The notes beneath the pieces are model-generated. The model had not been told where the DNA came from. It made no database searches and was given only the letters and a program-made list of their open reading frames with translations. Positions 6,487 to 38,001 of a stretch of DNA of 64,000 nt are shown here, in pieces (position 1 is the first letter of the stretch; every line of letters starts with the position of its first letter). This DNA is from Patescibacteria group bacterium UBA4787 (GTDB taxonomy: Bacteria > Patescibacteriota > Patescibacteriia > UBA2591 > UBA4787), in contig DHGX01000004.1 in the NCBI GenBank assembly GCA_002402995.1, positions 246,019 to 310,018 on the forward strand. The letters run 5' to 3'. The position numbers and the translations under genes were made by a program.

Positions 6487-6585
6487 AATGAATTAGAATT
6501 TAGAAAGTAGAAAATAAAATTAAAATATAAAATAAAAACAAAAAATAGAAAGTATGAATTAGAATTTATAATTTAGATTATTAAA

Positions 6586-7815
6586 TTAACGTAGAGACCA
6601 ACCAGTTCCTGGCTTAAAACAACAAATTCTTTTAGTTGGATCAAACCCATCGCCACAATCGGCAATATTAAGCCCCCCCGAACTTTCACAGACACTACAT
6701 AATTCTCTTTTTTCGTCTAAGTTACAACTTTTATCAGGATAAGGAGTGCACTTATTTTTAGAAAAATATCTATCTCCTGTTTCTGTTCCTGTTAATTTAA
6801 CGGTTACATAAGTGCAACCTTTTCGGGAGTGAACGACATCAAAAACTGACCCACTGCAACGCGTTCCTATTTGATTAGGAACAAAAGCGCTGGACGCAAT
6901 CATTGCTACAGGACCCAAAGGAGCAGCCACAAAAAAAGTATCAGCGCTTTGGCCGCAACTAAACTCATTGAGATCAACCTCTGGACCGCCGATAAAATAG
7001 TTTTTTAGCCCAGTTCCGTCTTCCTTAGCTAATGAAATCGTACCCGCCAACCTACATTCTGCTTTTTTAACATTATATTTAGTAGTAATATCTGGAGTCT
7101 TAGGATCCTTGGCGACATCTTCTCGCCATTTTAAGATATCAGACTGGGACACTTCAAGGTTTAATTCGCAAATAGTTCCAGCGCCGCACTCTGTACCAAT
7201 TACTTTCTGTAGTTGTCCATCGGAGGTAGTGACCATAGTGGAAACGCCGCACATCCGAGCGCCGATACGCGCATAAGCGCCTGGCTCACCAGACGGAGGG
7301 GTTGTCGTGAGGTCAAGGGGTTTATACCAACTAAATTGGGTCAATCGAATCGGAATATCCGTTGAAGCAATCTCGCGGGCAACGGGTTTAATCGTCAAGT
7401 CTTTAAATATGACCAAATTAGGATTAATAAAACTCAAAAAAGCATAAGCAAAAATAATAATCACTAAGCCCACTAAGGCGCTGGTGATCTGCGACTTAGC
7501 GCTGGTGATCGCGCTCACATTACCTCGACTGGTGATCATTTTAAAACCGGCCACCATAATCATTACTACGGCTAAAATAGCTACGGCGCTGATACCCCAT
7601 TTATAAGCCGCGATAATATAATCTCCGATACTTCGGCCTGTAATAGCGAAAAACGAACCTCCTTGTATTTTTGTTCCCGGAATAGTAACCTGTGGTATAA
7701 AATTAACGCCGCCGCTAGTTGGATTAGTTTGGGCTAAAACCGGTAAACTTAAAACGAGAAATAACAAGAAAAACAGTGTTACTAAAAAATAAATTTTTCT
7801 GTTTCGTAGGTTCAT
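6586..7815 (-). CDS. TrbC/VirB2-like pilin-fold membrane protein with a Cys-rich C-terminal extracellular extension (paralogue of 4127-5188)
   Basis: 409 aa. It has the same N-terminal module as 4127-5188 (GDYIIAAYKWGISAVAILAVVMIMVAGFKMITSRGN...ITSALVGLVIIIFAYAFLSFINPNL). The C-terminal roughly 250 aa contain many Cys (CGVS, CGAG, CSGS, CSVCESS, CGDGFDPTKRICC) but lack the C39 signature. Confidence 0.45.
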   Translation of the reverse strand: MNLRNRKIYFLVTLFFLLFLVLSLPVLAQTNPTSGGVNFIPQVTIPGTKIQGGSFFAITGRSIGDYIIAAYKWGISAVAILAVVMIMVAGFKMITSRGNVSAITSAKSQITSALVGLVIIIFAYAFLSFINPNLVIFKDLTIKPVAREIASTDIPIRLTQFSWYKPLDLTTTPPSGEPGAYARIGARMCGVSTMVTTSDGQLQKVIGTECGAGTICELNLEVSQSDILKWREDVAKDPKTPDITTKYNVKKAECRLAGTISLAKEDGTGLKNYFIGGPEVDLNEFSCGQSADTFFVAAPLGPVAMIASSAFVPNQIGTRCSGSVFDVVHSRKGCTYVTVKLTGTETGDRYFSKNKCTPYPDKSCNLDEKRELCSVCESSGGLNIADCGDGFDPTKRICCFKPGTGWSLR

Positions 7816-8869: not shown

Positions 8870-9433
8870 CTAATCTTTGTTAGAAAAAACAATATCGTCA
8901 ATCTTCCATCCTATAGATTCTTTAACGAAATACAAAACCGCGTTTTTATAAAAAATACTTACTTTGCCACCTATAGTCTCTGTCTGCTGACAAACGGCCT
9001 CGAAAACAGCGTTATTTCCTTCTATTTTTTGCCAATTATAAGAAATAACCTTGGTAATAATCTCTTGAAAATCGATTTTATTTTGATTAACAACTGCTTC
9101 GCTCTGTTTTATTAATTTCGACGTCATAGATTCAGACAACTCTTGAAGATTGATAATCGCGTTTTCTTTAGTATAACTTCCATAACGCTCAATAAACGAA
9201 CGAGCGATGGGCGTTAATTCGTTTTTGGTTATTTCTTCCGCGCTTAATAACGGCAGTTTATTCTCCGCTATTGATCCGTTGGTAGGAACATTCTGCTGAT
9301 TATTGGCTAAATTATCTTGCACGCGGATCTCTTTGGGCGCGGATTTTTCAGAATACCACAAACTGAGAAGATAAATTCCCAATCCTAAAACAGCGATAGC
9401 TAAAGCAATAATTAAAATTTTCTTTTTGGACAT
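8870..9433 (-). CDS. Hypothetical N-terminally anchored protein
   Basis: 187 aa. N-terminal TM (ILIIALAIAVLGLGIYLLSLWY). No recognisable catalytic motifs. Located in the T4SS-like locus. Confidence 0.3.
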   Translation of the reverse strand: MSKKKILIIALAIAVLGLGIYLLSLWYSEKSAPKEIRVQDNLANNQQNVPTNGSIAENKLPLLSAEEITKNELTPIARSFIERYGSYTKENAIINLQELSESMTSKLIKQSEAVVNQNKIDFQEIITKVISYNWQKIEGNNAVFEAVCQQTETIGGKVSIFYKNAVLYFVKESIGWKIDDIVFSNKD

Positions 9434-9473
9434 AGTTATATAAATTACGAATTACTAATTAATAATTACGAAT

Positions 9474-9625
9474 TATTAGAAAACGCAAAACTTAAAACGA
9501 AAAGCTCAAAAGAACAGTGTAAAATTCAAAACTTTAGCATATAAATACGCTCGTTTTTTTAATTCTATTTTAGGTTTTGAGCTATTGTTTTGCATTTTGC
9601 GCTTTTAGCTTTACGCTCACATCCT
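9474..9625 (-). repeat. Internally deleted copy of the roughly 460-bp four-helix-bundle gene cassette
   Basis: The sequence from 9541 to about 9625 is roughly 90% identical to 13318-13400. The sequence 9474-9535 matches 12944-12995. The roughly 305 bp of ORF body between them is absent. Confidence 0.6.
9506..9595 (-). pseudogene. Truncated remnant of a four-helix-bundle protein gene: the first 20 codons joined directly to the 3' flank
   Basis: Minus-strand translation from the ATG at 9595 gives MQNNSSKPKIELKKRAYLYA, near-identical to the N-terminus of the intact gene at 12995-13375 (MQNNNSKPKIELKKRVYLYA). It then runs into sequence matching the intact gene's 3' flank and stops after 29 codons. 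The flanks 9474-9535 and 9596-9625 match 12944-12995 and 13376-13402. Confidence 0.6.
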
Positions 9626-9629
9626 GTTA

Positions 9630-11645
9630 CTAAATATTCAAATCTTCTTTAGTTAAGTCTTCTGACATATCCCAGTCCACCTTTGTCGCTTCTGCTACAG
9701 GCTTCTCTGTGTTTTGTTTTTGCGATTGAGTAACGGCGGCTTTTTCTTCGGCCACCAATGATTCGGAAAACTCTTTTTTAGCTTTTTCTATTTCTAAAAT
9801 TTTTCTCGGATCGGTAGTGACTAACTGATCTTCCGAGTAAGAAGCTATTACTTTAATAGCGGCGTGCTTCGCGCCGGCGAAGAATATACCTTCGCCCACC
9901 CCGCACTCTAAAAGCAAATATTTTTCTCCTTCGGTCAACATAAATGTCGAGGCCACATTCTCAATGGCTGCTGGCGCTTGTTTTAATAAAAGCTGCAAGG
10001 CTGAATTGTTGATAATCGCCTTGCCATAAGAGGATGACAAGAAATCATTAACATCCTGCGTAATTGTAGTTATACCAAGATAATATTTACGGCAACGCTT
10101 AACCAAAGCAAAAATAAAACGGGCAGAATCTTCGTGCTGCATCAGCCACCATGCCTCGTCTATCACCAATATTCTTTTTTTCATCCGCGAACGAACAATA
10201 TTCCAAATATAATTTACGATGGTATAAATAGCGACTGGCCTCAATTCGTCTTCCAGATCGCGCACACTGAAAACGACCAATTGATTATCTATTTCCACGT
10301 TGGTCTGATGGTTTAACAAGCCGGAAAACGTTCCTTCTGTATATTTTTTTAAGCGCTCAGCTAAATCGCCGGCTCCTTCCATTCCCTCTAAAACTTGTTC
10401 TAAGTCGGAAAGCGTAGGCATAGTAACTTTAGATAAATCAACGCCCGGGACAATATCATTTTTAGCATAAGACTCCAAAAGCGCCCGATCCATAACAGAA
10501 TCTTCTCGAGGCGTAAATTGGCGGACTCCTCTCTCGTCGGGCGAGGCGATCATAATTTTTAACAAACCCTTTAGGATAATAACCGCGGAACGAATAAGAT
10601 TAGCCGTATCTACTTCACCCGTACTGGGCCGAGGAATATCAAATGGATTAATGCGGCTTTCTGAAGTTAAAGATATGTTAACAAAAGTGCCACCAACCGC
10701 GTCAGACAAATATTTATATTCTTTTTCCGGATCAATTATAATCACATCTGTACCGAGCATTAAGCTCCTCAAAATTTCCAACTTAATCGCATAGCTTTTC
10801 CCTGAGCCAGAAGTGGCAAAAACAACCATATTTCCATTTTGCAAACTAAAACGATCGAAAAGAATCAAACTATTATTGTGACGATTTATGCCGTATAAAA
10901 CCCCATCGTTTGATGTTAAATCAGACGAGATAAAGGGAAAAGAAGAAGCAATAGGCGAACTATTCATATTAAAATTGATCATTAACTCGTCGTTTCCCAA
11001 AGGAAGCGTCGAATTAAAGCCCTGTTCGGCTTGATATAAAACTCTCTTAGTATAAATCAGTTTTGAACCGAATAAAGTTTCTATTTTTTCAGAAGTATTA
11101 TCAAGATCTTTCGGATTATCGGCATAGATAGTAACATACAAAGCGAACTGGAAAAAATGTTCAACGCCAGTTGTTAAATCGTCTCTTAATTTTTCAATGT
11201 CTCTTAAAGCTGTTTCTTTTAAAGGATCTCGTGGCATGCCTTTCTCCTGTTCAGCGGCTATTTCTTGCTCTAAATTACCGGTTTTCTTCTGTAATTGTTT
11301 TAAAACTTCACCGGAAGGTACAGGATAAAAAAACATACCGATATCTAGAGGTCCATTAAAATTAATAACGGGCGCGAACCAACCAACGGCAATATAACGC
11401 GGATAAGTAATCACAAATATTGTTCTCACGTATTTATCTCCCAATTGAAGATAATTCGGCGTAATTCTCATAGAAGCCGGAGCAACAAGATCGCGCACCG
11501 AAACAACGCCGGCCAAATAAGCTTTTTCTTGTTCTAACGCCTCTTTGGTCTCTGTTGTTTTTATTTTTTCTGATATTTCTTTCTCTTGTTTTTTTATTTC
11601 TTCAGTCGGCGATTTAGTATTAATTGTCCTCGGATCAAAAACCAT
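9630..11645 (-). CDS. Type IV secretion system ATPase, VirB4/TrbE/TraC family
   Basis: 671 aa. Walker A VVFATSGSGKSY. Walker B and hydrophobic stretch RILVIDEAWWLM. The N-terminal domain is conserved with the CagE/TrbE/VirB4 family (DIGMFFYPV..., FQFALYVTIYADN). Confidence 0.8.
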   Translation of the reverse strand: MVFDPRTINTKSPTEEIKKQEKEISEKIKTTETKEALEQEKAYLAGVVSVRDLVAPASMRITPNYLQLGDKYVRTIFVITYPRYIAVGWFAPVINFNGPLDIGMFFYPVPSGEVLKQLQKKTGNLEQEIAAEQEKGMPRDPLKETALRDIEKLRDDLTTGVEHFFQFALYVTIYADNPKDLDNTSEKIETLFGSKLIYTKRVLYQAEQGFNSTLPLGNDELMINFNMNSSPIASSFPFISSDLTSNDGVLYGINRHNNSLILFDRFSLQNGNMVVFATSGSGKSYAIKLEILRSLMLGTDVIIIDPEKEYKYLSDAVGGTFVNISLTSESRINPFDIPRPSTGEVDTANLIRSAVIILKGLLKIMIASPDERGVRQFTPREDSVMDRALLESYAKNDIVPGVDLSKVTMPTLSDLEQVLEGMEGAGDLAERLKKYTEGTFSGLLNHQTNVEIDNQLVVFSVRDLEDELRPVAIYTIVNYIWNIVRSRMKKRILVIDEAWWLMQHEDSARFIFALVKRCRKYYLGITTITQDVNDFLSSSYGKAIINNSALQLLLKQAPAAIENVASTFMLTEGEKYLLLECGVGEGIFFAGAKHAAIKVIASYSEDQLVTTDPRKILEIEKAKKEFSESLVAEEKAAVTQSQKQNTEKPVAEATKVDWDMSEDLTKEDLNI

Positions 11646-11761
11646 AAAAATTAGAATTTAGAATAATGAATTAAAAAATCCTGAAGCTTGAAACTTGTTT
11701 TTAAAAATTTAAAATTTTGATTTGTCATTTTGCATTTTGATTTTTAAATTTTGAATTTCTA

Positions 11762-12442
11762 TTACTCCTCTATTCTTAATTCATTTATATCTGTTAATTT
11801 TTGAGTTTGCGCTTCGAGTGGATTATAAGTTTCGTATAATAATTCAATAACGCTTTGGGTATCTAACGGCACAGCCTTCAAACCCATGCTGGCAAGCGCG
11901 CTAATTACACCATCAACACGGCGAAAAAGCACCTCTCGATAATCTTCAAATTTTTCTCTTTTTAATTTGATAAATGTGCCGACGGAAAATACGTCTTGCA
12001 AGCGAGAAAAAAATCCTCTTTTTTTATCACCGGCCGGATTATAGGGAACCAATAAATAAAATCTTTTGCTCATAATTTCTCCTAATTCTACTAACTCGCC
12101 CACGAAATCAATATAATCGGAGATCTGGACACGCAATAAATCATTCTTTTGATTCTGGCGCAAAGTTTTCAATTTTTCCAAATATGGCTCAATGACAAAT
12201 TTTCTCGATTGAATAACTATTTGTATTGGAAATTCTAAAGTATTTAAAAATTGAACATAAGCTTGAACAAGCGCCTCTTGTTCTTCTTGCGATTTTAAAC
12301 CAAAATTAATAGAAGAAACCAATAAAATAGCTCTAAGTGTCCCGTCTTTCAAGACAACGATATCTTTTTTTACTTCGGAAATATCCAAATATTGCTGTGT
12401 CGAAGTTGATAATTTTTTTCCTGCTAATTTCTCGGATTTCAT
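11762..12442 (-). CDS. Hypothetical cytoplasmic protein, a possible T4SS accessory component
   Basis: 226 aa, directly upstream of the VirB4 homologue in the same orientation. The segment DISEVKKDIVVLKDGTLRAILLVSSINFGLKSQEEQEALVQAY loosely resembles VirB4 N-terminal-domain sequence. There is no ATPase motif. Confidence 0.25.
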   Translation of the reverse strand: MKSEKLAGKKLSTSTQQYLDISEVKKDIVVLKDGTLRAILLVSSINFGLKSQEEQEALVQAYVQFLNTLEFPIQIVIQSRKFVIEPYLEKLKTLRQNQKNDLLRVQISDYIDFVGELVELGEIMSKRFYLLVPYNPAGDKKRGFFSRLQDVFSVGTFIKLKREKFEDYREVLFRRVDGVISALASMGLKAVPLDTQSVIELLYETYNPLEAQTQKLTDINELRIEE

Positions 12443-12471
12443 AATAAATTAGAATAATTTAGAATAATAAA

Positions 12472-12978
12472 TCAATCTTCTTTGTAAGCGCCACCCGTAT
12501 CTATTAATAGAGACAAATGGGAAAGCTTAGCGGTACTTAACGGTTTACGCGGTATCTCAATGTCGATTTTAGTTTTTTTTGCCCAATCTTTTTCTTCAAT
12601 TTTCGCTACGATTGGCCGCCAAATTCTTAATCCGGGTTTTCTGGCAGTTTGGAGAACGTTTAAAAAAAAGAAATGAATCGGCTTGCCGTTAACTCGACCG
12701 AAAGCCAACAAGCCAAAAATGATCAAAATTATTATTCCCTCCACTAAAAATAAACTAAAATCAGATGATTTATAGGCGATAAGCTCCAAAGCAGCCCCAA
12801 TAATTAAAATAACAAATTGTCTTGGTGTTAAGGGACCTAAAATATGAGGCTCAATATCGATAAATTGTGGAACGATAAATTGCATAGAAAGATTAGAATT
12901 TAGTAAGTAGAAAGTAGAAAATAGAATCAACGAATAATGAATTATTAGAAAGCGCAAAACGTAAAGCGAAAAACTCAA
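12472..12978 (-). CDS. Small membrane protein, possibly a VirB3/PrgI-like T4SS component
   Basis: 168 aa with 2-3 predicted TM helices (PRQFVILIIGAALELIAY; GIIILIIFGLLAFG). It is positioned upstream of the VirB4 homologue, as VirB3 usually is. The call rests mainly on position. Confidence 0.3.
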   Translation of the reverse strand: MSFSLYVLRFLIIHYSLILFSTFYLLNSNLSMQFIVPQFIDIEPHILGPLTPRQFVILIIGAALELIAYKSSDFSLFLVEGIIILIIFGLLAFGRVNGKPIHFFFLNVLQTARKPGLRIWRPIVAKIEEKDWAKKTKIDIEIPRKPLSTAKLSHLSLLIDTGGAYKED

Positions 12979-12994
12979 AATAACAGCGTAAAAT

Positions 12995-13375
12995 TTAAAA
13001 CTTTTTTTTTCCCCTTAATGTTAAAATACTGGAGCCAAGAATATTAGCAAGCTCTGTTGTTTCTTGAAGCAAGATTTCAGTTTTACTTCTGTCGGCTTTA
13101 GCAGAATCTCTTAACAACCCCAGCCAGAATTTACTTTCATTGGCGGATTTTAACGCGTAATTAAAAAAATTGGTAAAATCTCTTTTCGTGCTTCCCGCTT
13201 GAGCTTCTATAATGTTCGCGCCAATACTTGTAGCGCTTCGTAAAAGCTGTTTAGCGATTATTTGCGCGGTAAAATCATTTTTGCTCAAACCGTCAATAAA
13301 TTTAATAATATCCAAAGCGTATAAATATACTCGTTTTTTTAATTCTATTTTAGGTTTTGAGTTGTTATTTTGCAT
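12995..13375 (-). CDS. Four-helix-bundle protein (TIGR02436 / 23S rRNA intervening-sequence protein family)
   Basis: 126 aa. The sequence LDIIKFIDGLSKNDFTAQIIAKQLLRSATSIGANIIEAQAGSTKRDFTNFFNYALKSANESKFWLGLL is characteristic of this family. The gene sits inside the T4SS-like operon and is flanked by sequences repeated at 9474-9625. Confidence 0.75.
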   Translation of the reverse strand: MQNNNSKPKIELKKRVYLYALDIIKFIDGLSKNDFTAQIIAKQLLRSATSIGANIIEAQAGSTKRDFTNFFNYALKSANESKFWLGLLRDSAKADRSKTEILLQETTELANILGSSILTLRGKKKF

Positions 13376-13413
13376 TTTTCGTTTTTAGCTTTACGCTTAC
13401 TTCTATTTTCTAA

Positions 13414-15087
13414 TCAAAACCGGAGTTTCTCGTTTAACTCAGAGATTATATTAAAATCTTCAAAGGTTAGAGCTTGTCGATTCTCCTTGAGACGATTACT
13501 GATTACTTCTTCGATTGTTTTTTCTTTTTCTAATGCCTCTAAACCAATTTCTATATATAATTTATTTACCTCTGATTCTTTCCACGCCTTAATTCCTTGC
13601 GAAGCCTTCAAAAGCGAATCTTCGGCCAATAAGTTGATTTTATCTTTAATACGATCAGCCGCCTCTCTGGAATTTCTCCAACGACGCCAATCAACCAAAC
13701 GAACAGTCCTTAGCTCGTCTATTGGCCCATAAATTTTGGGGGTGACTTTGACTTCTTCAACTATCCTTCTCTCTCTTTGCGCTTCATCTGACAACGACCG
13801 ATTTAAAATTAATGGTTCGGCAAATATATCACTTGATTTTTCTTGGGGCTGAAGTTCCGAAATCAATTCAGAAGATATTGATTTTGATTCTTGCATTTTT
13901 TGAGCAGAAAAAGCGACATCCGATATGGGTTCAAGTGGAATAATATTGGATGGAATAAGTGTTTCTTCTTTCGACGTGTTTAAGCTGGGCACAACTGGTT
14001 CAACATTGATTGGTTCTGGCGTTTTTTGAGTTATTTGTATAATCTGTGTCGGTTCGGGTTCTATATAAGGAATATCTTTTATTTTTAAAGACAAGGATTC
14101 ATTTTTTGTTTCTGCTTCGGTAGGCAAAAATTTAACAGCCGTTGGCCCGGCTATTTCTCTTTCGGGAAGCGGACATTGAAAAGTTTCTAAACCCGCCATA
14201 GCCCCCTCCTCAAATCGAATCCTTTTGCTTTCTTTTTCTGGTTCTTCGGCGCTTTCTCCTTCTGTTGATTTAACAACAAAGTCTGCGGCAGTTTTTAAGC
14301 CATGAGTCAATCCCCCATCTGCCAGAGGCAAAGGAGCGGGAATTTTCTGTGTCTCAGAATTAAATTGACGCAACAAATCTTTTTTATTTTTTAAGACGGA
14401 AATTAAAAAATCTGTTTGGCTGTTGTCAAATTCCATTCCACCGACCTTAAAAGGACGCGTCAAAACATCTTTTGTTCCAATTTCATCGCGAATATCTTTT
14501 AAATAATTTATAATAATATTTTTTAAACGGCCCGTGGCCACCGAATCAGGAAAAGTAAAGTGGCTCATAACATCCGAAATCATTTCGTCGGTTTTTGCCC
14601 GCCTAGACTCGGTGAGACTGGCCTGTCTATTCAAACCATTGCCGCTCACATCATGAGGCTGAGCCGCCAACTCATTAATTTCTTCTTTGGTTAAAATATT
14701 GTCCCGATTTTCCGACAATGTTGAAGTTGGTAGGACTTGGACATGAGCCCCTGTTTCCGGTTGCCTTGACTCGGCAAAGCGGACAGATTGCGCGAGAGGC
14801 TCTTTTGTTCTTGGAGTTAAATTTGATAAAATCGGCAATAAAATTTTATTTAAACTATCTTTGACAATTTGCGCTGAGGATTGGTTTAATTTGTAATTAT
14901 TTATTAAATCATTTGGTAAATCATCGAAAGATACATCATTAATCAACAAACGGGTAACGACTTCAGTAATGTCAAGCCGGTATTCTTTTTCCAGTTGACT
15001 AAAAATTTCAAGATTTTCCGAGGTTGGGATTTGCTCTTTAACCTCTGGCGGTAGCGATAAGTATTTTTGTAAGTATTCGCTGTTCAT
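13414..15087 (-). CDS. Hypothetical soluble protein (557 aa), acidic and Ser/Glu/Pro-rich, no TM
   Basis: Long ORF in the T4SS-like operon with no recognisable motifs. Confidence 0.3.
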   Translation of the reverse strand: MNSEYLQKYLSLPPEVKEQIPTSENLEIFSQLEKEYRLDITEVVTRLLINDVSFDDLPNDLINNYKLNQSSAQIVKDSLNKILLPILSNLTPRTKEPLAQSVRFAESRQPETGAHVQVLPTSTLSENRDNILTKEEINELAAQPHDVSGNGLNRQASLTESRRAKTDEMISDVMSHFTFPDSVATGRLKNIIINYLKDIRDEIGTKDVLTRPFKVGGMEFDNSQTDFLISVLKNKKDLLRQFNSETQKIPAPLPLADGGLTHGLKTAADFVVKSTEGESAEEPEKESKRIRFEEGAMAGLETFQCPLPEREIAGPTAVKFLPTEAETKNESLSLKIKDIPYIEPEPTQIIQITQKTPEPINVEPVVPSLNTSKEETLIPSNIIPLEPISDVAFSAQKMQESKSISSELISELQPQEKSSDIFAEPLILNRSLSDEAQRERRIVEEVKVTPKIYGPIDELRTVRLVDWRRWRNSREAADRIKDKINLLAEDSLLKASQGIKAWKESEVNKLYIEIGLEALEKEKTIEEVISNRLKENRQALTFEDFNIISELNEKLRF

Positions 15088-17852: not shown

Positions 17853-17890
17853 CCCCAGTAGTAGAAACTTCGTTTCACTACGGGGCAGGC
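17853..17890. repeat. Short hairpin repeat CCCCAGTAGTAGAAA...TTCACTACGGGGCAGGC, related to the TIRs of the 139-bp element
   Basis: The sequence ccccagtagtagaaacttcgtttcactacggggcaggc forms an imperfect inverted repeat. A near-identical unit is at 49147-49192. The arms match the TIRs at 37765 and 46232 (ccaggtagtagaaa / ttcactacctgg). Confidence 0.5.
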
Positions 17891-17959
17891 ATTTTAATAT
17901 GATAACATTTTTACGCTTTGTGCTCTATGCTCCATGCTTTGCGCTTTACGCTTTTTGTA

Positions 17960-20900
17960 TTACGGCTTAAGTAAAATTGAACCGCTGAACGAAGTGCCAT
18001 TCGAACGAACATCGCATTTATTGTCGCTACTATTAGAATCTTCGCAACAATTATCATCGCCCACGTGATTTCCGCCATTGCACCAGCCCCAATTATCCTT
18101 AACATAAACTGTGGGCTTGAATGAACATTGAGCCGGGCCTTCGCAGTGATAAAGATGGTTAAATTGGAAATAAGTGGGCGTGCAAGCATTTGGCACATTG
18201 CCGAAATTCAAATAACTCGTTCCATCTCTCTGATAGACCTCGTCGTTTTGACTTATGCCTAAATTTAAACAATCGGCGTTGGACGAACAACACATTGGCT
18301 TATGATTCTTGGCTAACATAGTATTAGAACCAGAAGACAATGGCTTGCCATCATCCCAATCAACCATAACTTCGCGAATCGGCATATGATTTTTATCCGC
18401 CCAAGCGTAAAATTTAAGCACGGCCGGATAAATACTGCCGCTACCAGTAAGATTATTTGTATCTTCGTTGTTAATGGTTATTTTCCCTATGGCGCCCAGA
18501 GAACAGCTTCCTTCGCCACTTAATTCTCCGCCGGTGCATTTGACTGAAGCGACTTTGGGAGCGGAATGACCAGTGACAGACAAACTTAATTGACTATCGT
18601 CAGGACTCCAAAGCTGGGCACCGTTAGAATACTGTCTAGTGGTAGTATTAAAACTATAGGCCTCGTAACTTTTAGCAAATAAGTTTTTAAGGGAGTCTTT
18701 GCTTGTGTAAACGAAACCATGCCGATTATCGCAGATTGTTCCCGAGACTATTAATGTAGAAGGTTTGGGAGAGCCGCTCGAACCATACGGTAAACAAATA
18801 GTAGCATAGAAGGCGTCATCAATTATTGCCGTAGTTTCATAACCCTTAAGACGATTAGTCCATGCTTTAGTAAAATTATTCGCGTCAGCAATCTTAGCTA
18901 CATAGCTTGCACCATTTTTTATGGAAACAATTATTTGACTAATAGAGGTTGTGCCTGTATGTTCGCTATTATCACAAAGTTGTATTCCTATACGCAACCT
19001 ACCGCCTGAATCAGCTCCCGCAGAAACGCCTACAAAATTGTTACCATCACTACAATTACCGCTCGGCTGAGTAAGATCAAAATTATTTGAGATATTCAAA
19101 TTTACCCACCCACTACCAGTAATTTCATCATCTCCCCCTCCCGAATCGTCACCACAAACAGTCTTTCCATAATTACCGCCCCATTCTTGAAAATACAAAC
19201 TAACTTGATCAATCTGGTCAAAATAAATTGGGATATCATTGTTATTTACCCAACTCACTACACCATAATTATCGACTTCATAATAACCGAGTATATTAGC
19301 ATCTGGACGACCACATACGCCATAACTATTAGATCCATCAAGAGTAAATTGCAAGCCACTACTAATATTTTGAGCGGTGCTGGCACCAAAAGCGGAATAC
19401 CATACGCTTATATTAGTATAATATCCTGCGCTTTGATATTGATTATAAATATCCGGATCGCCGACTGCGGCGCTGCCTGGCCACCAAGTCAAACAAGAAT
19501 TGAGTTCGCCTGGTACGGATAAATCTCTTTCCAAACAATAACCGCGCTGACCGATAGCGGTTGTTTTTTTACTCAAACGCGTACAGCCACTATTATACGG
19601 ATCCTGACTTGGCGCACACTCTTCGCCGAGTTTCGCGTCGCCACACTGCCCTTCAGCTGAACAAATACCGAGCCACTGGTCTTCAATATAAGTAAGATAA
19701 TTAACCGTGCCAGAATACTCGCCTTTTTTATAAGCGCACTGGCAATCTCTGTATAAATAACTTTGTGTATTATTATCATCGATCGGTTGACAAATATTGA
19801 TACCTTTATATTTATCGCTTAAGCCCGGAGCAAACGGCGAATCAATTTCCGGGTACAAACGGCAAGTTTTATCAATTACTCGGCCTCTGCCATCAACACC
19901 CGCATCGTCAGAACATTCACCGGGAGTTCCATCATCTAAAAGACCGCACTGTAACGCATTAGAACCTTTGACATCACAAAATCCACCGAAATTATCAATC
20001 TTGCTATCAATATTACACTTGAATGCGCAAGCTGCATTTTCTACGCCACAGTCTGTGTTGCTAGCGCAAGGACTACCTTCATAACTATCTTTTTTATAAC
20101 TGTTGGCGCTACAAATTTTCGCTGTATTTGCCTGACAAACACCGTTGCCACATTGCAAAGAATCAGTACAACTATTCCCGCTTAAGTCTATATAACCATT
20201 GCCATCGCAAAGTTTGGCACAAGTACTAGTATCACAACTCATACCTTCGGGGCAAGTACTAGAACAACCATAACCGCACCAAAACAAGGCCATACGAAAA
20301 TCTTTAGTGGCAATAGAAAAATCATTATTATTTTTTAAACGCATACTAGTGTTTCCACTACTGCCGGCACCGCCTTCAACACAAAAGCCGCAACAAGCAG
20401 CAGGTGGTAGACAAATTCCGCCAGCGCCGCAATCGGCATTAATGCTGCAGCCAGTAGTATTGCTAACATATTGGCGACTGCCAGAAGAACAAGTCCAAGA
20501 AGTTCCGGCTGGATATTCACAATTGCCTTGCCCCAAACCGTTAGTGCCAATGCAATCTGCGTCAATATTACAAGTATTACCAGCAGTTGAAATCGGAGCG
20601 CTATTTCCAGCCGAACAAGTCGTGCCAACGCAAGAACCACTGCCGCAATCGGCATTAGTAGCGCAAGACTCGCCAATCAGCGAAGTCTTGCCACTAATAC
20701 AACGAAGTTCTCCGCGGAGACTGGAAGTTAATTTATATATATTCTCATTATGTTCCCGATAAAGCTTGGGCGCCAAATTTTCAACCGGATAATAGTTATA
20801 TAAAGAATAACCGCTATAATCCCTGCCTGCCCAAGAAACATCGCGCGCTTTATATTCAGCTTCGTTTAAAATATCAGGATTATTAGTAACCACCGGATGA

Positions 20901-23900
20901 GCGCAAGAAATAGCGGCATTGTCAGACAACTGATCGCAACGCAACACATAATCACAAACATTTTTAAAGATATTTTCTGTTTTTGACCACTGTGGAGTAG
21001 AACCAGCGCAAGTCAGCCATTCACCGCATTCACGATCGCGGACAACTTTAATAATGGCGTTAGCGTCATTACCGCTTTGAGAATATCGCGCGCAATATTT
21101 GCAATAATCCGCGTCTTGATTATTGGAAATCTCGCAATCCAAAGTCTTCTTACAATCAACCGGCATAACTAAATCATATTTTTTCTCCTCGCTCTTTTTA
21201 TAAGTCGCGACTGAATTATAAGTAAAAGGCGTGGTGCCGTTATGATAATCTTTCAAACTACTATCCGCGAAAAGAATACAACCGGCTTTCGGGCTAACCT
21301 GACCATTACATGAGGTACGATCTAATTTAGTATTATTTAGATAATAATAAGGTTCAAGGGACTTGATTTCAACATCATCAAGAGAAGCTATTCCTCTTCC
21401 CATAGTATCAGCCGCATAAGCTTGATCAATAATTCTAAAATTAACAACAGCTTCTTTAATTTTTAAACTGCGCGGATTAAGCGGACCCGCGGCGGCTATA
21501 ACTTGGGAAAAATCGTGCCATCTGCCATCTATCATTGTTGAGTCACCTTGATAAATGACGGATATTGACGCATTAGTCCAATAACCATGGGTTATAACCC
21601 ATGCCCATCCATTGGGTATATTTATTACATCAAAACCAGCGCTTAAAGAATCTAAACACTTTGCCAGCGGAACTTCGGAGTTAGTTAGCGTAGCTGGATC
21701 ATAAGAACAAGGGGGAATATCATTTGGCGCTGGCAATCTATCGATACAATCAAGAATCCCATTACTACCGCTACTACCGTCTCTGTTAATAATGTCTATA
21801 CCCTTCCATTTTCCGTTATCCCACTTGTAACAAGCAGCCCAATCCTGCCATTCTCCGGTAGTAAACGCGTCGGATACGGTTATTCCATCATCCTTATAAT
21901 ACGCGGGAACACCCGACATGCCTTCAAAATTTAAGTCCACTGAAAGGTGCGCTATACTCTTTCTGTTGGGTATTTCACTATTATTTAAACCAATGGGTGT
22001 CAATAAATTATCAACTTTTATTTTGGCTTTTATAACATAATTACTGCCGGGCAAAGATATGGATGGTTTTATTTGTTGAGTGACAGCAGCCGCAAACCAG
22101 GACACCCCTGATGGTGCGTTCGTTACAAAACTGGCGTTTCGACTATCAATGCTCAATAATTTATTCTCGCCTTCTTGGGTAATCCCCACTGTTATAGAAC
22201 CTTTATCTACAAAATCATAATTTGTTGCATCATACCATGGGGAGGTAAGAGTCAAGCTATCTTCAAAACTTCCATTCTTTACTAAATTAAGAACCGCGGT
22301 GGCTTGAGTGTCAACAAAACTAGCGCAAGAATTTTGGCTGGAAGGACAAACGCCCACCCAATTATCGTAATTGCTTTCACCGGCCCAACGAATACCATAA
22401 GTTAACCCATCAGGCTGATAAGGATTTCCTTTGTTCGGGCCTTCTTCAGTATTATAATAACAAGCCTGATTAGTTCCTTTCTTGAACCAACCGCTTTTGA
22501 CTTCACTTCCGATATTAACATTCTCGCGATATTCGCATAATTTATTTTTTGGGTCGCGGAAATAAGCTTTAGATTTACTGCTCGCGTCAAAAAATTCTTC
22601 GCAACCCTGTCCGTTTTGATCGCATAAAATTGGACGGCGATCATAGAGATCAGGATCGTTTTTCAAATATTGATCAGACCAACCGACCACCGCGCCGTTT
22701 ATATCTAAAGTAGGCAAACCAAAACGCTCACAACCCTTAAATTCCGCTTTACAAATTTTTCTCGAATCAATCACTAAATAATCAACGCTGTCTGCCGGAA
22801 CATTTACGTCGTCAGTCAAAACCGCTGTATCTTTGTTAAATTCTTGGCCGAAAGGCGAAGAAGAATTATGGGTATCAATTACCAAATCGCAACCAACTTT
22901 ATCGTCCGGACATAAGCTACTGAAAGATTTGAGATAAGAAAATTTTCCAGCTCTATCTTTATAGCTGTCGCAGCCAATCATAAAACCCGGCGCTGAATTA
23001 TTGTTGTAATCTCTATCACAGACCAGCGGCGTTTTCCAAGAATTTTTAACGAGATAGATATTGCTAGTTATTTCTTGAAGTTTAATATTATCTAAATAAA
23101 ATCCTGTTGATGGTCCGGCGATAAACAAGCTTTCGTTGATATCTACGTCGCGGCTAAAATTAACCGGTCCAAGTTTAACTTCCTGCCACTCATCGCTAGC
23201 GATATTCTTAGAACCAAAAGACAGATCACTGCCAAATTTTGCCGAATAAGTTCCGCTACCCTTAACCCAGAAAGTTATCAAATATGATTTATCTTTCTTA
23301 ACCGAATTTTTTACTACGCGACTCACCGAATTAGTGCTTAAGACTCGCATAGAATGACCGCCCAACTTTATAGACTCTGTGCTTTGCAAAACATCACCCG
23401 TCCATAGAGTTATACTATTGTCAGCAGTTTCAAACTGATCATTAAACAAAGTTTTCATATTATTGGCGTTGTTGCCCTTATACTCGCGGCAGCCAACATT
23501 CGCCTTACCGCAAGAAACTCCCTCGCTTGGTATGGCCATATAAACGCAAATTCCCGTAGCAGGGTCATAACTCGTTCCCGGCACATCATTGGTTGGACAA
23601 TAAGCATTATCAACCGAAGTAGTCTTCCTAAACGGATGGCAATCTTGTGAACAGCTTATCGTGTTCTCATAAATACGATAATAAACCTCACCCGTGGCAC
23701 TATAAAATTGTTTACAGTGCGGATTGACCAAGATATCGTCTGCTCCGGCGCAAGACCCCAAATCCAAACGTAGATTAGAAACAACCGCTGGACCAGCATC
23801 ATTACCCTGTTTTAAATAATATCTTTTCAGTTGATATCCCGTAGTGTCGGAACCGATCCAGGTATAATAAGGATTGCAAACAACTTGACCGATCGCGACA

Positions 23901-26900
23901 GGATTGTTGTTCTGATCGGTTCTTACGCACTGCCTAAGATAAGAATAATACTCTTTTCCTTCACCGCCTTTGGCAACTTCATCTAGATTAGTAAATTCTT
24001 CGCATCCCACATCCGAAGCTGGACAACTCTTGCCGGTTGCCGAAATAAAATTAGTGAACGGCACGGCTGATTCAAAATTAGTAGCCGACTGACGAAAAGT
24101 ATTATAACCCACGCAATCCGAAGGGCACGTGTCTTCATTTTTAACAATAGCCGGAAAAGCGCTACCAGAAGAAATATTAGTATAAAGTTCGCACCCAACC
24201 TCCGTGGCGCTGCATTTTTTCGTAAAATTAGCGCACTTAACCGGATCTTCGTTGATAGTTCCACATTTCAAATAATCCGGCGCAGTTTTTAAATAAATTT
24301 TATTAATAGACGCGTATTCTTTATAAGGAGTGGTGTTCGCGCCTGATTCTAATTGAAAATCGTCAAAATAAATATCGCCGTTGATGTCATCACCTGGTTC
24401 CCATCTCAAAGTACGAACATCTAATTCTGAACCGTTAATTATTAACGGATAATTAAATGTGTAAATCAAACGTTGCCAATTATTAGTGATTTTTTGTTGA
24501 GAAATTTCTACCACGTTACTGCTGTCCACCGGGTTCGCGAAAAGATGAAGATTGATAGACTTTTCCGGTCTAACCCAAATCGAGAAAGTATATTGTTTGC
24601 CGATCGCGAGTGGCAGAGAAACGTCCGGATTAATCCGCGGACTGCCCCAAGCAGAAATAACTTTCGCCACTGCCTTGCCAGAATAAGCAAGGTTTTGATC
24701 CGCCAAGAAAAATCCGCCCTCAATATCCCAACCGTTTACACTGGTGAGCTGGCCTTGATTGTCGACATTATAATTTTCAAAACTACCATTCGGAATTAAA
24801 TTAACACCGGAACCGACCGTTGCTTGAATATATTCATGGCAACCCTCGTTGTCATTGGAACAGGCGCTAATATTTTTATTAAAAAAAATGACATTGCTTT
24901 GGTTGCCAACGACTTCCGGTCCAGAGCAAGTCCATGTCAAAATTTCTTTATTGTCAACAACTTCCGGTCCATAATTTTTACAATACCACCCGCAACCTAC
25001 ATTATTTTGATCGCAACCGCTAAAATCAATTGTATTTTTAACGAATGATTTTTCTTCGCCGGTATTAACATTTTTATAAATAGAACATGATTCATATTGT
25101 TTGGAGCATTCATCTCCTCCGAAACGCCAGATATTTTTTTCACGAGTGCAATAACCCCAACCCAAACACTGTCCCTTCTCGTCTGTTTTAAGACAATCTT
25201 TCAAGTCAACGCAAACTTCCTGCCTTTGATTAGAGTCGCCCAGCGGAACCGCGCCATAACCCCTGGCTTCACAGAAAAATTGCGGGATACTCAAAATCCA
25301 ATTTGGATCAACGAGGCGGTGGAACGGACTGTTCTCTTGATTGAAGCCATCAACGACTTCTTTCAAAGTATAATTTTTATTTCCCAATTCTCCGTTGGAA
25401 ATTTTTGTCGCGGCAATTTCTAAACCAAGAGGCGTGATTCTGGCGCGACGTAATTTTTTAATATTTGTTAAACTGAATCTTTCGTTGCAATCATTAAATC
25501 TATCGGCTTTGCCAATTTCGCCGACGGTCCAATTTTTATTCAAGAGATTTTTCTCTATCGCTTCGCTAATAGACATTTTCTCTTCAATCGCGCGACGGAA
25601 ACCAGCATCAATAACATTGGTATCCGGCAACACATAATTAGCCCGATCTATATAACTGGAATAATTTTCCAATAAATCAACCTGTCCGCCACTTCTAATT
25701 GGGGCCGTGGCTAAATCAGCCATAGCAATTTTAGACTCTGTCGCGCCAGGATTAAAAACAACCTTTCCGGACGGATCAATACTCCAGCTCGTATCAGGAT
25801 CTTCTGAAGGATTTAAGCCTTTTTTAAGTCTATCTAAAAGCTTACTTATTAAAGTATTAGTAAAAATGCCAATGGCGTCAGCTGCGGCTACGCCAGTGTA
25901 TTGTTTAACGCTGGCCGTGCCCTCCTGAACTGCTTTACGCGCTTGTTCTCCGACCAAAGTAGATGGCGTTTTAATTTTTCCGGAAACTAAACTCTCAATG
26001 CCCTTCATTGGACCATTAATTAAACCCCATACTTTTTTCTCTTCCTCGCGGGCAGCTTTTTCTAATTGAGCCTGTTCAGAAAGAACCATTAAAGCTCCCA
26101 GGTCGCTACCCGAAGCTGACATATCCTTCTGAAGATCTTCTAATGTAGTATTAGGACCGCCACCCGCATAACTCGGGCTTTCTACGCCGGCAATAAACTT
26201 AGTCACTCGCCCGTTAATTTCGGTAATCTGGCTAAGTAATTGACTAAAATAGGTTTGAGCCCTATTAGTTTGCGCCTTACAACAATTCGCATATTTCAAA
26301 GTGCAATCGGTCCCGATAGTATCACAACCCGTCAATCCTTCATTACAATAACCGCGACACTTGGGATTGCCACAAAAGTCGTTAACCGAGGCAATCGAAC
26401 AACTGACCGGATCGTCCATATTATTATTGGTAAAACAAGTGGTTTTATTTGGCAGGTCTTGAAGTTTTTTATTTTCTACTTTCAACTTATTCAAAAGGCC
26501 TTCATTAGCTATTACCGAGATATCCGGCCACTTTTGGTTGATGTCGTCTAAATATCCGGTGATTCTATTAAAAGAATTATTAATATCTGTTTTAAAACAG
26601 TCTATGACATACCTGGTCGTTTGATTAATCGAGGTGTCAGCATTATAAAGCTGGTTCAATTGTTCTAATCTGGCGCCGAATTCATCGCCAGTTTCCGTAT
26701 CAGCGCTAAAACTAACCAAATTCTTTTTTAATAAATCGCCTTGCGCTTTTCTAATTTTACTTAATGAACACAGTTTATTTTGAGATATGGGCGGCATTTT
26801 TGAAGAAATATCCGGAAGACTAAGAATTAATTTAAATTTTAATTGCGGATCAAGCGGATCGCAGAGGCTTTGGTTAATGAAACCTGAAGCTTGAGCGGTT

Positions 26901-27406: not shown

Positions 27407-28180
27407 TTAATTGGAATTTGAAATGCCTTGTAAGAACATATTTTTTAGGGTTTCGTCGTCTATCGCATCAAGCATATTTTTATCAACACCATTCTGCAAA
27501 AGTAACGCTCGGATTTCATTAACATTTAATAAAGAAGTGTCTTGATTTATGCCAGAATTGGCTTCAGATTGCCCGCTTAGATTCGGCGAGGATGTGCTAT
27601 TTTTTAAGACACTTTCGAGGTCTATGCCTGTTTCTTGTTTGGTTTCATTATACATATTTTTTAGGGTTTCGTCATCTATCTTATCCACCGCATCTTTAGA
27701 CATACCGCCCTGTGTAATTAAAATTTCTCTAATTTGGTCGGCGGTCAAATTATCCGCATTTTGCTCGCTTTTCGGAACACCAAAACTAATGGGCTGACCA
27801 GCCTTATTGTCTGGAAAATAACTGCCAACATTATTCGGCGTTGAAGCCGGATCAAGAGGGTTACTACCCGCTGAAACTTCTTCTTTGTCATTGAAACCGT
27901 CGCCATCAGAATCAGCTAAATATTTTGAGGTATGATAGTTGTTTTCTTCTTGCCAATCCGGAATTCCATCACCATCCGTATCCTTGTCTTGATTGTTTTT
28001 TAGAATATTTTTTAATTTTTCCGCCGAAGGATTAATTTTCGCCGCGAATGGCTGATAAATTGTGTTTTTAATTTTAAAATAACCGACGGTTAGAATAGAA
28101 ATAGAAAATATAACCAGACCGAATATTATAATTCCGTCTTTATAAGTATTAAAGAATAATTTTGAACCGATTTGTTTCAT
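27407..28180 (-). CDS. Secreted or N-anchored protein with thrombospondin-type-3-like Ca-binding Asp repeats and an internally duplicated helical module
   Basis: 257 aa. N-terminal TM. DTDGDGIPDWQEEN and DSDGDGFNDKEEV (DxDxDG). A duplicated module ...IREILITQGGMSKDAVDKIDDETLKNMYNE / ...IRALLLQNGVDKNMLDAIDDETLKNMFLQ. The DNA also shows the duplication (27420-27500 versus 27650-27730). Confidence 0.45.
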   Translation of the reverse strand: MKQIGSKLFFNTYKDGIIIFGLVIFSISILTVGYFKIKNTIYQPFAAKINPSAEKLKNILKNNQDKDTDGDGIPDWQEENNYHTSKYLADSDGDGFNDKEEVSAGSNPLDPASTPNNVGSYFPDNKAGQPISFGVPKSEQNADNLTADQIREILITQGGMSKDAVDKIDDETLKNMYNETKQETGIDLESVLKNSTSSPNLSGQSEANSGINQDTSLLNVNEIRALLLQNGVDKNMLDAIDDETLKNMFLQGISNSN

Positions 28181-28224
28181 AAATTAGAAAGTAGAAAATA
28201 GTAAACAGAAAGTAGAAAGTAGAA

Positions 28225-29079
28225 TTAAAAAATTATCATCGAATTGTAAATTTTTAACCAGTCAGCCAGCAATAAATCTTCCGCTCTAATCTGTTTATCA
28301 ATCTTAATTTCTTCAAAGACTTTTTCCCAAACGGCTCTTCTTTCGTCTTTATTCTCCACCTTTATTATATCATACGCAACCAAATTGTTAAGCAAAAATT
28401 TCCGGGGCGAAGAGAAACCATTTTTTATCAAATTGAATAATTCCTTTTCAATTATCTGTTCTGAAAAAATTCTCCTAGAAATAATTTTAACTATGGCAGA
28501 GTCTACCTTCGGGCTCGGAATAAAATTACCAGACGGAACCTTCAAAATAAATTTTGACTCTCCATAAAATTCGATAACATTAGATAAAATACTTCCCTTG
28601 TTATTTTTTCTGGTAATTCTTTCGGCCACTTCTTTTTGCATCATCAAAACAGCGAGACGCGGTAATAATTCTTTTGAAAAAAACCTTCTCAAAATTAATC
28701 CGGTGATTCGATAAGGAATGTTGGCAATTAATTTATAACTATAGATTGAATCGCCCAAAATTTTGTTTAAATCAACCTTAAGAATATCGCCTTGAATGAT
28801 TTTAATATTTTCGTAATCGCGGCATAATTTTTGGCAAATAGAAAATAGATCATTATCAAGCTCTACGGCGACAACCTGTTTAACCTTCTGCGCCAAAGCA
28901 CGAGTTAAAAAGCCAAAGCCCGGCCCAATTTCTAACACAACGTCGTTTGAATTTAAATCTGCTCCCTCGATAATTCTTTCTATAATATTCTCGTTAATCA
29001 AAAAATTCTGGCCGCGAAATTTATTCGGCTGAATTTTATACTTGGCAAGTATATTTTTAATTTCTATTGCCAAAGACAT
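28225..29079 (-). CDS. rsmA: 16S rRNA (adenine1518/1519-N6)-dimethyltransferase RsmA/KsgA
   Basis: 284 aa. RGQNFLINENIIERII; SAM-binding VLEIGPGFGFLTRAL; NIPY motif. Confidence 0.85.
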   Translation of the reverse strand: MSLAIEIKNILAKYKIQPNKFRGQNFLINENIIERIIEGADLNSNDVVLEIGPGFGFLTRALAQKVKQVVAVELDNDLFSICQKLCRDYENIKIIQGDILKVDLNKILGDSIYSYKLIANIPYRITGLILRRFFSKELLPRLAVLMMQKEVAERITRKNNKGSILSNVIEFYGESKFILKVPSGNFIPSPKVDSAIVKIISRRIFSEQIIEKELFNLIKNGFSSPRKFLLNNLVAYDIIKVENKDERRAVWEKVFEEIKIDKQIRAEDLLLADWLKIYNSMIIF

Positions 29080-37694: not shown

Positions 37695-37764
37695 TTATAT
37701 ATAAAAATGTTTAACAAGGAAGAAAATACTGAATTATTATATATCAATACGGCGTTTTTGGCAA

Positions 37765-37902: not shown

Positions 37903-38001
37903 CAAATTTGCCAAAAGATATCAACTGGACAAAACGCTTAAAATGTGATAGATTTAATTATATAAAATATAAAGATCTTTAAAAACAAAAGGAGAATAAC
38001 A

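Follow-up and report, generated by a model that had tools for sequence, protein, structure and literature searches.

Within the 64,000-nucleotide stretch of Patescibacteria group bacterium UBA4787 analysed here (the window; contig DHGX01000004.1, positions 246,019 to 310,018), an operon resembling a type IV secretion system (T4SS) carries a small gene for a four-helix-bundle protein and a shortened, non-coding copy of the same unit. The unit is probably a selfish cassette of ~450 bp, similar to the intervening sequences (IVSs) of rRNA genes, in which a four-helix-bundle gene lies between inverted repeats made of heptamer arrays, and the shortened copy is probably its deletion derivative. The features that define the two copies lie on the minus strand, the orientation of all genes in this part of the window:

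12949–13398, minus strand: full element of ~450 nt, comprising a 5′ inverted repeat, the four-helix-bundle open reading frame (ORF), and a 3′ inverted repeat.
13355–13398, minus strand: 5′ terminal inverted repeat, tandem heptamers AAGCGTA AAGCTAA AAACGAA AAATGCA AAATAAC AACTCAA.
12995–13375, minus strand: four-helix-bundle gene (S23p / 23S_rRNA_IVP family), 126 aa.
12949–12994, minus strand: 3′ terminal inverted repeat, ATTTTACGCTGTTATTTTGAGTTTTTCGCTTTACGTTTTGCGCTTT, beginning directly after the stop codon.
9480–9617, minus strand: short ORF-less copy of 138 nt, the 5′ repeat and codons 1–20 fused to the last codons and the 3′ repeat.

The full element sits between a 557-aa gene (13414–15087) and a PrgI-like gene (12472–12885), with its ends matched by nhmmer repeat models at 13403–13316 and 13013–12945, and its 5′ repeat takes in the ATG (13375–13373) and codons 1–7. 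The short copy is located between virB4 (9630–11645) and a 187-aa gene (8870–9433), and was matched by the repeat models with E values of 1.2e-17 and 5.3e-15. An earlier account based on the letters of the window (the sequence-only reading) had described an intact gene and a gutted copy with the same flanks and first 20 codons. This was borne out by a blastn comparison of the full copy with the window, which returned a 5′ block of 78 nt (13397–13320 against 9617–9540, 91% identity, E = 3e-23) and a 3′ block of 66 nt (13004–12939 against 9535–9470, 89% identity, E = 5e-16). In the short copy these blocks meet directly at 9536/9535; a repeat search of the window recovered the same pair. The N termini of the full and short copies (MQNNNSKPKIELKKRVYLYA and MQNNSSKPKIELKKRAYLYA) are identical at 18 of 20 residues. 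The internal deletion of the ORF body proposed in the earlier account therefore stands, although its size was measured as ~312 bp (13005–13316) rather than ~305 bp, and what remains is an ORF of 29 codons (9506–9595) that lacks the bundle, with both arms kept. Logan assemblies of the same organism (L014–L016; loci outside the window are designated by L numbers) are short; they start within the 3′ repeat of the full copy and stop in the short copy, within its 5′ part. Breaks at these points are what a repeated sequence would cause in an assembly graph, and they are independent support for the presence of two copies.

A 61-nt inverted repeat, 74% complementary, spans 12940–13000 and 13348–13408, and in RNA folding the arms of the full copy close a loop of ~360 nt containing the ORF. 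The flanks of the gene are terminal inverted repeats of 44–46 nt composed of tandem heptamers (NCGNAAA / TTTNCGN), which makes a hairpin of 138 nt out of the short copy; the RNA fold of this copy is one long hairpin of -41 kcal/mol (z = -3.4), with 0 shuffles as stable. Neither the nature of the flanks as terminal inverted repeats built of heptamers nor the correspondence of the whole anatomy to an ORF-bearing IVS of 23S rRNA had been remarked on in the sequence-only reading. The short copy is ~10% diverged from the resident full copy, and its 5′ part is equally close to L017, which rules out a recent copy of the resident element; the duplication is therefore old, or the copies came from sister lineages. 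The 64-kb window contains one full copy, one short copy, and two relics.

Across the family, the arms of these elements pair, and correlated changes preserve the pairing. Of eighty metagenome loci that were fetched, 66 were usable for arm pairing, and in essentially all of the 66 the two flanks pair with each other, the mean energy being -45 kcal/mol as compared with -29.5 kcal/mol after shuffling (p = 2e-12). Arms swapped between loci still pair at -42.8 kcal/mol; being nearly interchangeable, they are a conserved part of the element. Each arm is an array of approximately six units, which read NCGNAAA in the sense strand of the 5′ arm and are complementary to this in the 3′ arm. The periodicity was evident, over 60 distinct members of the family, as a lag-7 autocorrelation of 0.52 and 0.55 (5′ and 3′ arm, respectively) and a lag-14 autocorrelation of 0.49 and 0.51, against 0.36 (S.D. 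0.007) in shuffled arms and ~0.32 in sequence further out. Since the repeat units slip in register, RNAalifold on the concatenated arms recovered only 10 pairs and was replaced by a hand-specified stem of 29 pairs. In this stem 80.3% of cells are paired, as against 77.6% with shuffled partners, and 16 pairs have changed on both sides where 10.3 are expected (0/500 shuffles reach either value), whereas sliding the stem out of register lowers the paired cells to 43–53%. Third-codon-position identity is 0.76 in codons 1–8 and 0.47 in the rest of the ORF. As these codons lie inside the repeat, and residues 1–11 are disordered in the structural model described below, the N terminus MQNNNSK is dictated by the repeat and not by the protein. 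The notion that elements insert into pre-existing host hairpins, in the way that IVSs enter the tips of rRNA helices, was rejected as a general rule, in that the 30 nt outside the repeats pair at -6.75 kcal/mol compared with -6.74 kcal/mol for flanks taken from different loci.

Close relatives differ at orthologous gaps: an element of this subfamily or of a sister one may be there or not, may be exchanged, or may have been relocated. Besides the PrgI-like gene and virB4, the T4SS-like host operon includes a TraC-like N-terminal part (11762–12442) and a pilin-domain gene (6586–7815). Orthologous operons were recovered through VirB4 relatives, with virB4 nucleotide identities to the window of 93.6% (L101), 86.5% (L103), and 72–74% (L097, L098, and L099). 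The gap between the 557-aa gene and the PrgI-like gene (gap A) measures 528 nt in the window, where it holds the full element, compared with 9 nt in L101, 6 nt in L098, and 75 nt in L099. In L097 the same gap is occupied by a different, 105-aa four-helix-bundle gene with GTAACNT-type repeats, and in L103 by a GxxExxY / PDDEXK_3 gene (TIGR04256, E = 8.5e-32) with repeats of its own (AATTTACGAATC / GATTTGTAAATT). The gap between virB4 and the next gene (gap D), 196 nt long with the short copy in the window, lacks that copy in L098, L099, L101, and L103, the four other genomes where it was readable, and in L101 contains a different insert of 100 nt. The short copy is thus missing from the orthologous gap of every relative examined and is not a conserved leader, in keeping with its earlier description as a deleted gene copy. 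In addition, L101 has a 119-aa four-helix-bundle gene after a 430-aa gene, at a point where the window gap is 5 nt. The L097 operon carries two other four-helix-bundle subfamilies; the operons of L098 and L099 are without any, and their gaps are compact (1–14 nt). The comparison for presence or absence that the sequence-only reading had proposed for strains yielded, among these relatives, filled, empty, and exchanged orthologous gaps.

A third feature of the operon bears on the question of movement:

11646–11761, minus strand: degenerate ORF-less relic of a related element, 116 nt, AAAATGCAAAATGACAAATCAAAAT..., nhmmer E = 4e-4.

This relic fills the gap between the two halves of a split virB4, a gap of 1–3 nt in L098 and L099. 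Its sequence recurs with 90% identity at 7145–7262 of L101, there in the gap between the PrgI-like and TraC-like genes; the corresponding gap in the window is 29 nt long and empty. The residence of the relic in different gaps of the window and L101 is the observation that points most directly to movement of ORF-less copies. The split of virB4 itself (9630–12442) into a TraC-like N-terminal ORF of 226 aa and an ATPase ORF of 671 aa is conserved in all six related operons, with gaps of 1–3 nt in the compact ones, and is therefore normal for the lineage.

Here and beyond this operon, the element fills gaps between co-directional genes, in their orientation. It carries no promoter-like or terminator-like signal of its own, as no convincing site of either kind was found inside the two window copies. 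The elements make up the whole intergenic region, from 8–55 nt to the upstream stop and typically 45–60 nt to the next start. Neighbouring genes are co-oriented in 104 of 110 cases, compared with 82.5% for the remaining pairs of adjacent genes at those loci (p = 1.7e-4). At least 42 unrelated contexts are represented among 55 loci, including positions upstream of recA and on either side of rpoB (rpoB/rpoC). One site is occupied in five divergent contigs (L046, L076, L087, L090, and L091), and such sharing of contexts indicates long persistence of some insertions. Together with the presence/absence and positional polymorphism among close relatives, the number of unrelated contexts upholds the earlier suggestion of a small selfish or duplicative module. 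The accompanying suggestion of an insertion-site preference holds only in the form of a strong bias to co-oriented intergenic gaps, a bias that selection could yield as well as targeting. Residence of this subfamily in rRNA was rejected: Rfam detected a single tRNA in the window and no rRNA in 16 related loci, and the flanks are protein-coding genes.

The 126-aa protein is a clear member of the S23p family, with matches to TIGR02436 (E = 1.5e-22, 79.9 bits, cut-off 24), PF05635 (E = 1.6e-18, 67.3 bits, cut-off 33.8), and PDB entry 2RLD (E = 1.3e-15). An AlphaFold2 monomer model (pLDDT 89.8) consists of four helices, comprising residues 12–28, 35–60, 64–90, and 96–120, preceded by the disordered residues 1–11. 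The top hits in a Foldseek search were 2RLD (E = 1e-6, TM 0.78/0.90) and 2GSC (TM 0.78/0.84), followed by bAvd (4DWL and 8UB7, TM ~0.7), both alone and within the ribonucleoprotein of a diversity-generating retroelement (DGR). The protein is basic, with a pI of 9.9. 2GSC has been reported as a pentamer (PMC4990558), and pentamers have been reported for Avd also. Pairwise dN/dS values of 0.04–0.10 (~0.07) indicate that the ORF is functional and under strong purifying selection.

A search for relatives of the protein returned 6379 matches, the best 120 at 75–94% identity, and 5717 clusters at 50% identity match it. Few of the sources carry names; named relatives are mostly Patescibacteria, with one assigned to Bacteroidota. 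On other Patescibacteria contigs, 83 full elements of 417–542 nt (mode ~460) were delimited with nhmmer end models. Many ORF-less hairpins of 95–150 nt with variable breakpoints were also found (for example in L044, L050, L055, L059, L066, L072, and L094), and this recurrence in other genomes makes the short copy of the window one instance of a recurrent class. At some loci an ORF-less hairpin directly follows the stop of a full four-helix-bundle ORF (4325–4450 in L017/L003/L004, 2262–2390 in L053, and 4188–4322 in L055), and in L020–L022 and L048 the 5′ end is duplicated in tandem; both arrangements suggest that elements inserted into one another or that slippage occurred between arrays of repeats. 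In a scan of one genome per species, a 21-mer shared by both window copies gave nine matches, of which L011 is a chance match and the other eight lie in unrelated phyla. Carriage by phages was considered and rejected, as no relative was found in viral contigs.

Inverted repeats are also a property of other four-helix-bundle subfamilies. Among the fetched loci, 23 distinct genes of such subfamilies are flanked by inverted repeats (-33.9 versus -21.4 kcal/mol, p = 5.6e-5), each subfamily with its own repeat unit (for example AGAAAAT, GTAACNT, AAAGTCC, or CCTAATT); a 234-aa four-helix-bundle variant has no such flanking repeats. On plasmids of Dolichospermum, Gloeocapsa, and Planktothrix, four-helix-bundle genes are wedged between co-oriented genes and flanked by inverted heptamer arrays, with the units AATTCGT, TTTAGAT, and AATCGTA. 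In Bernardetia and Treponema the flanking heptamer arrays are direct, not inverted. A Nostoc plasmid (NZ_CP040299.1, 27283–27639; L105) has an annotated four-helix-bundle gene wedged between cas2 and cas1.

How such an element would propagate can be outlined in conditional terms. It would be co-transcribed with its host operon, and the arms in the transcript would form a duplex of ~45 bp hiding the start codon, which, by analogy with rRNA IVSs, could be a substrate of RNase III. The short copy, which retains the hairpin, may have arisen by internal deletion between the arms and could be mobilised in trans. The four-helix-bundle protein presumably binds the heptamer arrays, serving propagation of the element or control of processing. 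Our best guess for movement itself is a hairpin- or inverted-repeat-directed DNA transaction performed by host nucleases and repair, or else recombination after DNA uptake.

Several observations weigh against an IVS-type selfish cassette. No transposase, recombinase, or reverse transcriptase was found within the element or its neighbourhood, nor did a target-site duplication appear in the filled/empty comparisons, where layered relics in the gaps blur the ends. The window has just one full and one short copy. RNase III cleavage is argued by analogy only, from the IVSs of Coxiella, Salmonella, and Leptospira that have been studied by experiment. The duplex energies of the sense and antisense strands are equal (-45.0 versus -45.4 kcal/mol) and the sense strand has no bias to G-U over A-C mismatches (141 G-U versus 174 A-C); selection on sense-strand RNA therefore finds no support, and nothing shows the sense RNA, rather than the DNA, to be the selected structure. 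The loci were picked for carrying the full element and their sequences are phylogenetically related, which inflates the shuffle statistics. Finally, synonymous sites are at or near saturation even between the closest members (dS 0.9 to >2; 0.92 between the window and L017). Constraint, and not a recent transfer, consequently accounts for the high protein identity, and the movement demonstrated is confined to the time over which species diverge.

The strongest rival is a domesticated module of RNA processing or stability, in which the hairpins would be operon punctuation (RNase III sites, or stabilisers setting cistron ratios), the protein a host RNA-binding regulator, and the patchy distribution a product of vertical inheritance and frequent loss. 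Purifying selection on the ORF, the site filled in five divergent contigs, the sense orientation within operons, and the stem kept by covariation all fit this explanation. We nevertheless judge it unlikely, since the compact orthologous operons of L098 and L099 work without any module, a single gap has three unrelated occupants in close relatives (the four-helix-bundle gene, a gene of another subfamily, and GxxExxY), the relic lies in different gaps despite the near-identity of virB4 in L101, and there is no signature of a sense-strand RNA. Alternatively, the cassette may not transpose at all and may spread in the manner of free-standing homing-endonuclease genes, by homologous recombination of flanking genes after DNA uptake, reaching new sites through rare illegitimate events. 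Presence and absence at identical junctions with nearly identical flanking codons would be expected from such a process, and both the PD-(D/E)XK-type GxxExxY gene in the same niche of L103 and the T4SS/competence-like character of the host operon are compatible with it. The four-helix-bundle protein, however, is without nuclease features, and the diversity of contexts together with ORF-less copies that are dispersed, and in one case relocated within the operon, calls for movement to new sites, so that homing of this kind appears quite improbable.

An ordinary local duplication followed by decay of one paralogue, with no mobile-element biology, would account for two copies 3.5 kb apart in one operon that are mutual best or near-best matches (89–91%). 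It is made very improbable by the closest relatives, which lack both copies at these sites, by the identical anatomy at dozens of unrelated loci in other genomes, and by a deletion that precisely spares both inverted repeats, as it does in many independent ORF-less copies. Least credible of all is that the protein acts as the Avd of a DGR. The resemblance of its fold to bAvd speaks for this, as does the description of PF05635 as an Avd-like Pfam family (PMC10053308). The 64-kb window, though, holds no reverse transcriptase (an RVT_3 match at 35554–35961 is an RNase H) and no template/variable repeat pair next to the gene; the neighbours are T4SS genes; and the protein has no match to NF033474 (DivGenRetAVD) at E values up to 0.01. 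Other subfamilies in L097 match that model weakly, scoring 36 and 23 bits where the cut-off is 80. A DGR role was accordingly rejected for the window, which otherwise encodes housekeeping functions.

The remaining array-like sequences of the operon are as follows:

17905–17955, minus strand: solo units of the 5′-arm type, AAAGCGTAAAGCGCAAAGC ... CAAAGCGTAAAAATG, with no 3′ partner and below the nhmmer threshold.
12886–12948, minus strand: heptamer arrays of other unit types, ATTATTC GTTGATT and TTCTATT TTCTACT TTCTACT.
9434–9479, minus strand: AATTCGT-type heptamer array separating the short copy from the following start codon, common to L101.

A recurring GCTTTACGC motif had been put forward in the sequence-only reading as a marker of the element boundaries, and did not hold up. 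Exact sites are present at 9608, 13388, 17943, and 25932, and with up to one mismatch there are 14 sites in total against 16 expected. The 9-mer is a fragment of two adjacent heptamer units of the flank repeats; not being enriched, it was dismissed as an insertion-site motif and has no meaning alone. Nor does it occur three times at 17905–17955, as had been stated: that gap carries GCGTAAAG/GCGCAAAG units, all of the 5′-arm type. The gap lies between a 3103-aa and a 907-aa gene and measures 120 nt, compared with 3–52 nt in L097, L098, L099, and L101. A GC-rich hairpin (CCCCGTAGTG…CTACTACTGGGG) at 17855–17895 adjoins the solo units. Its 19-nt core is found, identical, in the 3′ flank of the four-helix-bundle gene of L101 (14848–14961), and a 13-nt core recurs at 49179, near the tRNA-Val gene. 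The 3103-aa ORF (17960–27271) heads the T4SS-like operon; its orthologues are 2671–2923 aa long, with at most faint CBM_4_9 matches.

The arrays at 12886–12948 separate the full element from the start of the PrgI-like gene and look like relics of earlier occupants of the gap. Their end, ...ATTCGTTGATTCT followed directly by the ATG, also closes the GxxExxY cassette in gap A of L103, and TTCTATTTTCTA-type repeats flank a 117-aa four-helix-bundle gene in L097. The PrgI-like gene itself begins at the ATG at 12885 (137 aa, PrgI family E = 8.7e-6), where all orthologues begin ATGCAATTTAT, and not at 12978 as the neighbouring gene had originally been drawn; the TTG-extended ORF 12472–12978 wrongly overlaps the 3′ repeat of the element. 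Arrays of the TTCTACT / TTCTAAA type occur on the gene-sense strand at 6487–6591, 11646–11680, 12886–12940, 28178–28236, 42522–42566, and 43164–43231, and in the three gaps that were read (the first three of these) they lie directly upstream of a start codon. Inverted repeats built from this type of unit enclose a different four-helix-bundle gene in L097 (5878–6231), and the arrays may be relics of the L097-type subfamily or a leader motif supplied by elements to the downstream gene. As the AATTCGT array at 9434–9479 is also present in L101, it is older than the insertion of the short copy. The AATTCGT unit further flanks the GxxExxY gene of L103 (4532–5001) and a four-helix-bundle gene of a Dolichospermum plasmid (L104 1380–1960).

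Two other small repeats were observed in the window. A separate hairpin element of ~150 nt is present twice, at 37756–37904 and 46223–46372 (88–90% identity), with the arms GCCAGGTAGTGAAAATTCGAT / ATCGAATTTCTACTACCTGG and a fold of -43.8 kcal/mol (z = -4.6). Each copy precedes a gene of the minus strand, recJ in one case and a class II aminoacyl-tRNA synthetase gene in the other, and the element looks like a second family resembling miniature inverted-repeat transposable elements (MITEs). The other repeat (…TTTCATTTCCGAGCGAGCG…CAGGGCTTAATACCC…) is found at 1379–1470 and 50692–50748, and in L101 at 11650–11740 (84.8% over 92 nt), in a different gap, between 282-aa and 434-aa genes.

Where IVSs come from, whether they move, and what their S23p ORF does are questions that date from the early 1990s and are still debated (PMC4990558). 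With filled, empty, and relocated sites, selected ORFs with matching arrays, and deletion derivatives in hand, the idea of a mobile element whose ORF serves mobility becomes testable. Tentatively, and as a possibility that we hold to be less probable than not, rRNA IVSs could make up the minor, rRNA-resident part of a very large class of cassettes without transposase that has gone unrecognised, each cassette with a gene for a ring-forming four-helix-bundle (or GxxExxY nuclease-fold) protein between inverted heptamer arrays. The pentamer would read its own, subfamily-specific arrays, and elements and ORF-less derivatives would colonise any site that is transcribed yet dispensable, such as operon gaps, rRNA helix tips, and the sites of cyanobacterial short tandemly repeated repetitive (STRR) sequences. 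If true, this would give a function to both the S23p/Avd-like family and the heptamer arrays. On a practical level, the cassettes enlarge the intergenic regions of otherwise compact Patescibacteria operons, break assemblies, and cause over-extended gene calls, such as the one described above for the PrgI-like gene. They can also create false guilt-by-association, as for the four-helix-bundle gene between cas2 and cas1 on the Nostoc plasmid. A metagenome survey of candidate cas genes mentions 23S_rRNA_IVP four times (PMC3936711), and we merely conjecture that cassette insertions like the Nostoc case lie behind such associations.

Several known systems share parts of this anatomy. The Correia/NEMIS elements of Neisseria and the enterobacterial repetitive intergenic consensus (ERIC) sequences are hairpin-forming MITEs co-transcribed with neighbouring genes. 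The short copy is comparable with these in being a 138-nt non-coding sequence bounded by inverted repeats (<~300 bp), located in an operon gap, folding into a long RNA hairpin, and looking like an internal-deletion derivative of a longer element; it differs from them in that its parent lacks a transposase gene, target-site duplications were not found, and the repeats are heptamer arrays. A REPtron consists of a RAYT gene flanked by inverted repetitive extragenic palindromic (REP) hairpins, RAYT being an HUH tyrosine transposase. Here too a small gene is bracketed by inverted repeats and solo copies are scattered in intergenic regions, but the four-helix-bundle protein is without HUH tyrosine transposase motifs. 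The heptamer sequences of the cyanobacterial STRRs, reportedly described by Mazel et al. in 1990 and by Vioque in 1997, are likewise intergenic tandem-heptamer arrays, and inverted heptamer arrays flank the four-helix-bundle genes of cyanobacterial plasmids. To our knowledge, STRRs have been neither linked to four-helix-bundle genes nor described as cassette ends; the likeness suggests a lead, with STRRs as candidate members only. The Avd proteins of DGRs have the same S23p/Avd four-helix-bundle fold, are pentameric in solved structures and basic, and in the DGR complex bind structured RNA and the reverse transcriptase (PDB 8UB7). The protein of the window has neither a reverse transcriptase nor template/variable repeats beside it, shares ~15% sequence identity with Avd, and falls below the Avd equivalog model.

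The closest counterparts are the ORF-bearing IVSs of 23S rRNA from Coxiella burnetii, Leptospira, Haemophilus, and Brucella, which the element resembles in its size, in terminal inverted repeats that form a stem, in a sense S23p ORF within the loop, in heptamers just upstream of the ATG, in a poor ribosome-binding site, in the existence of ORF-less versions, and in its sporadic distribution. The Coxiella IVS is 428–444 nt long with terminal inverted repeats, a sense S23p ORF, and demonstrated excision by RNase III; its ATG is preceded by a variable number of heptamer repeats, and its ribosome-binding site is poor (PMC4990558). Mobility of IVSs has long been suspected, and their distribution is sporadic (PMC4990558; PMC11270868). 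A survey of rRNA insertions in the candidate phyla radiation (CPR) found 23S_rRNA_IVP ORFs inside insertions of both 16S and 23S genes (PMC11270868), such that the operon and rRNA forms coexist within one phylum-level group. The literature searched, which left out most papers in subscription journals, contained no description of the operon-gap form. Unlike the known IVSs, the element lies between protein-coding genes of an mRNA operon and not in helix 9, 25, or 45; several copies or relics are present in one operon; and its ORF is strongly constrained by purifying selection, in contrast to the decaying ORF of Coxiella. Because it does not reside in a 23S rRNA helix, the element is not filed as an IVS and is described instead as an IVS-type cassette of mRNA operon gaps.

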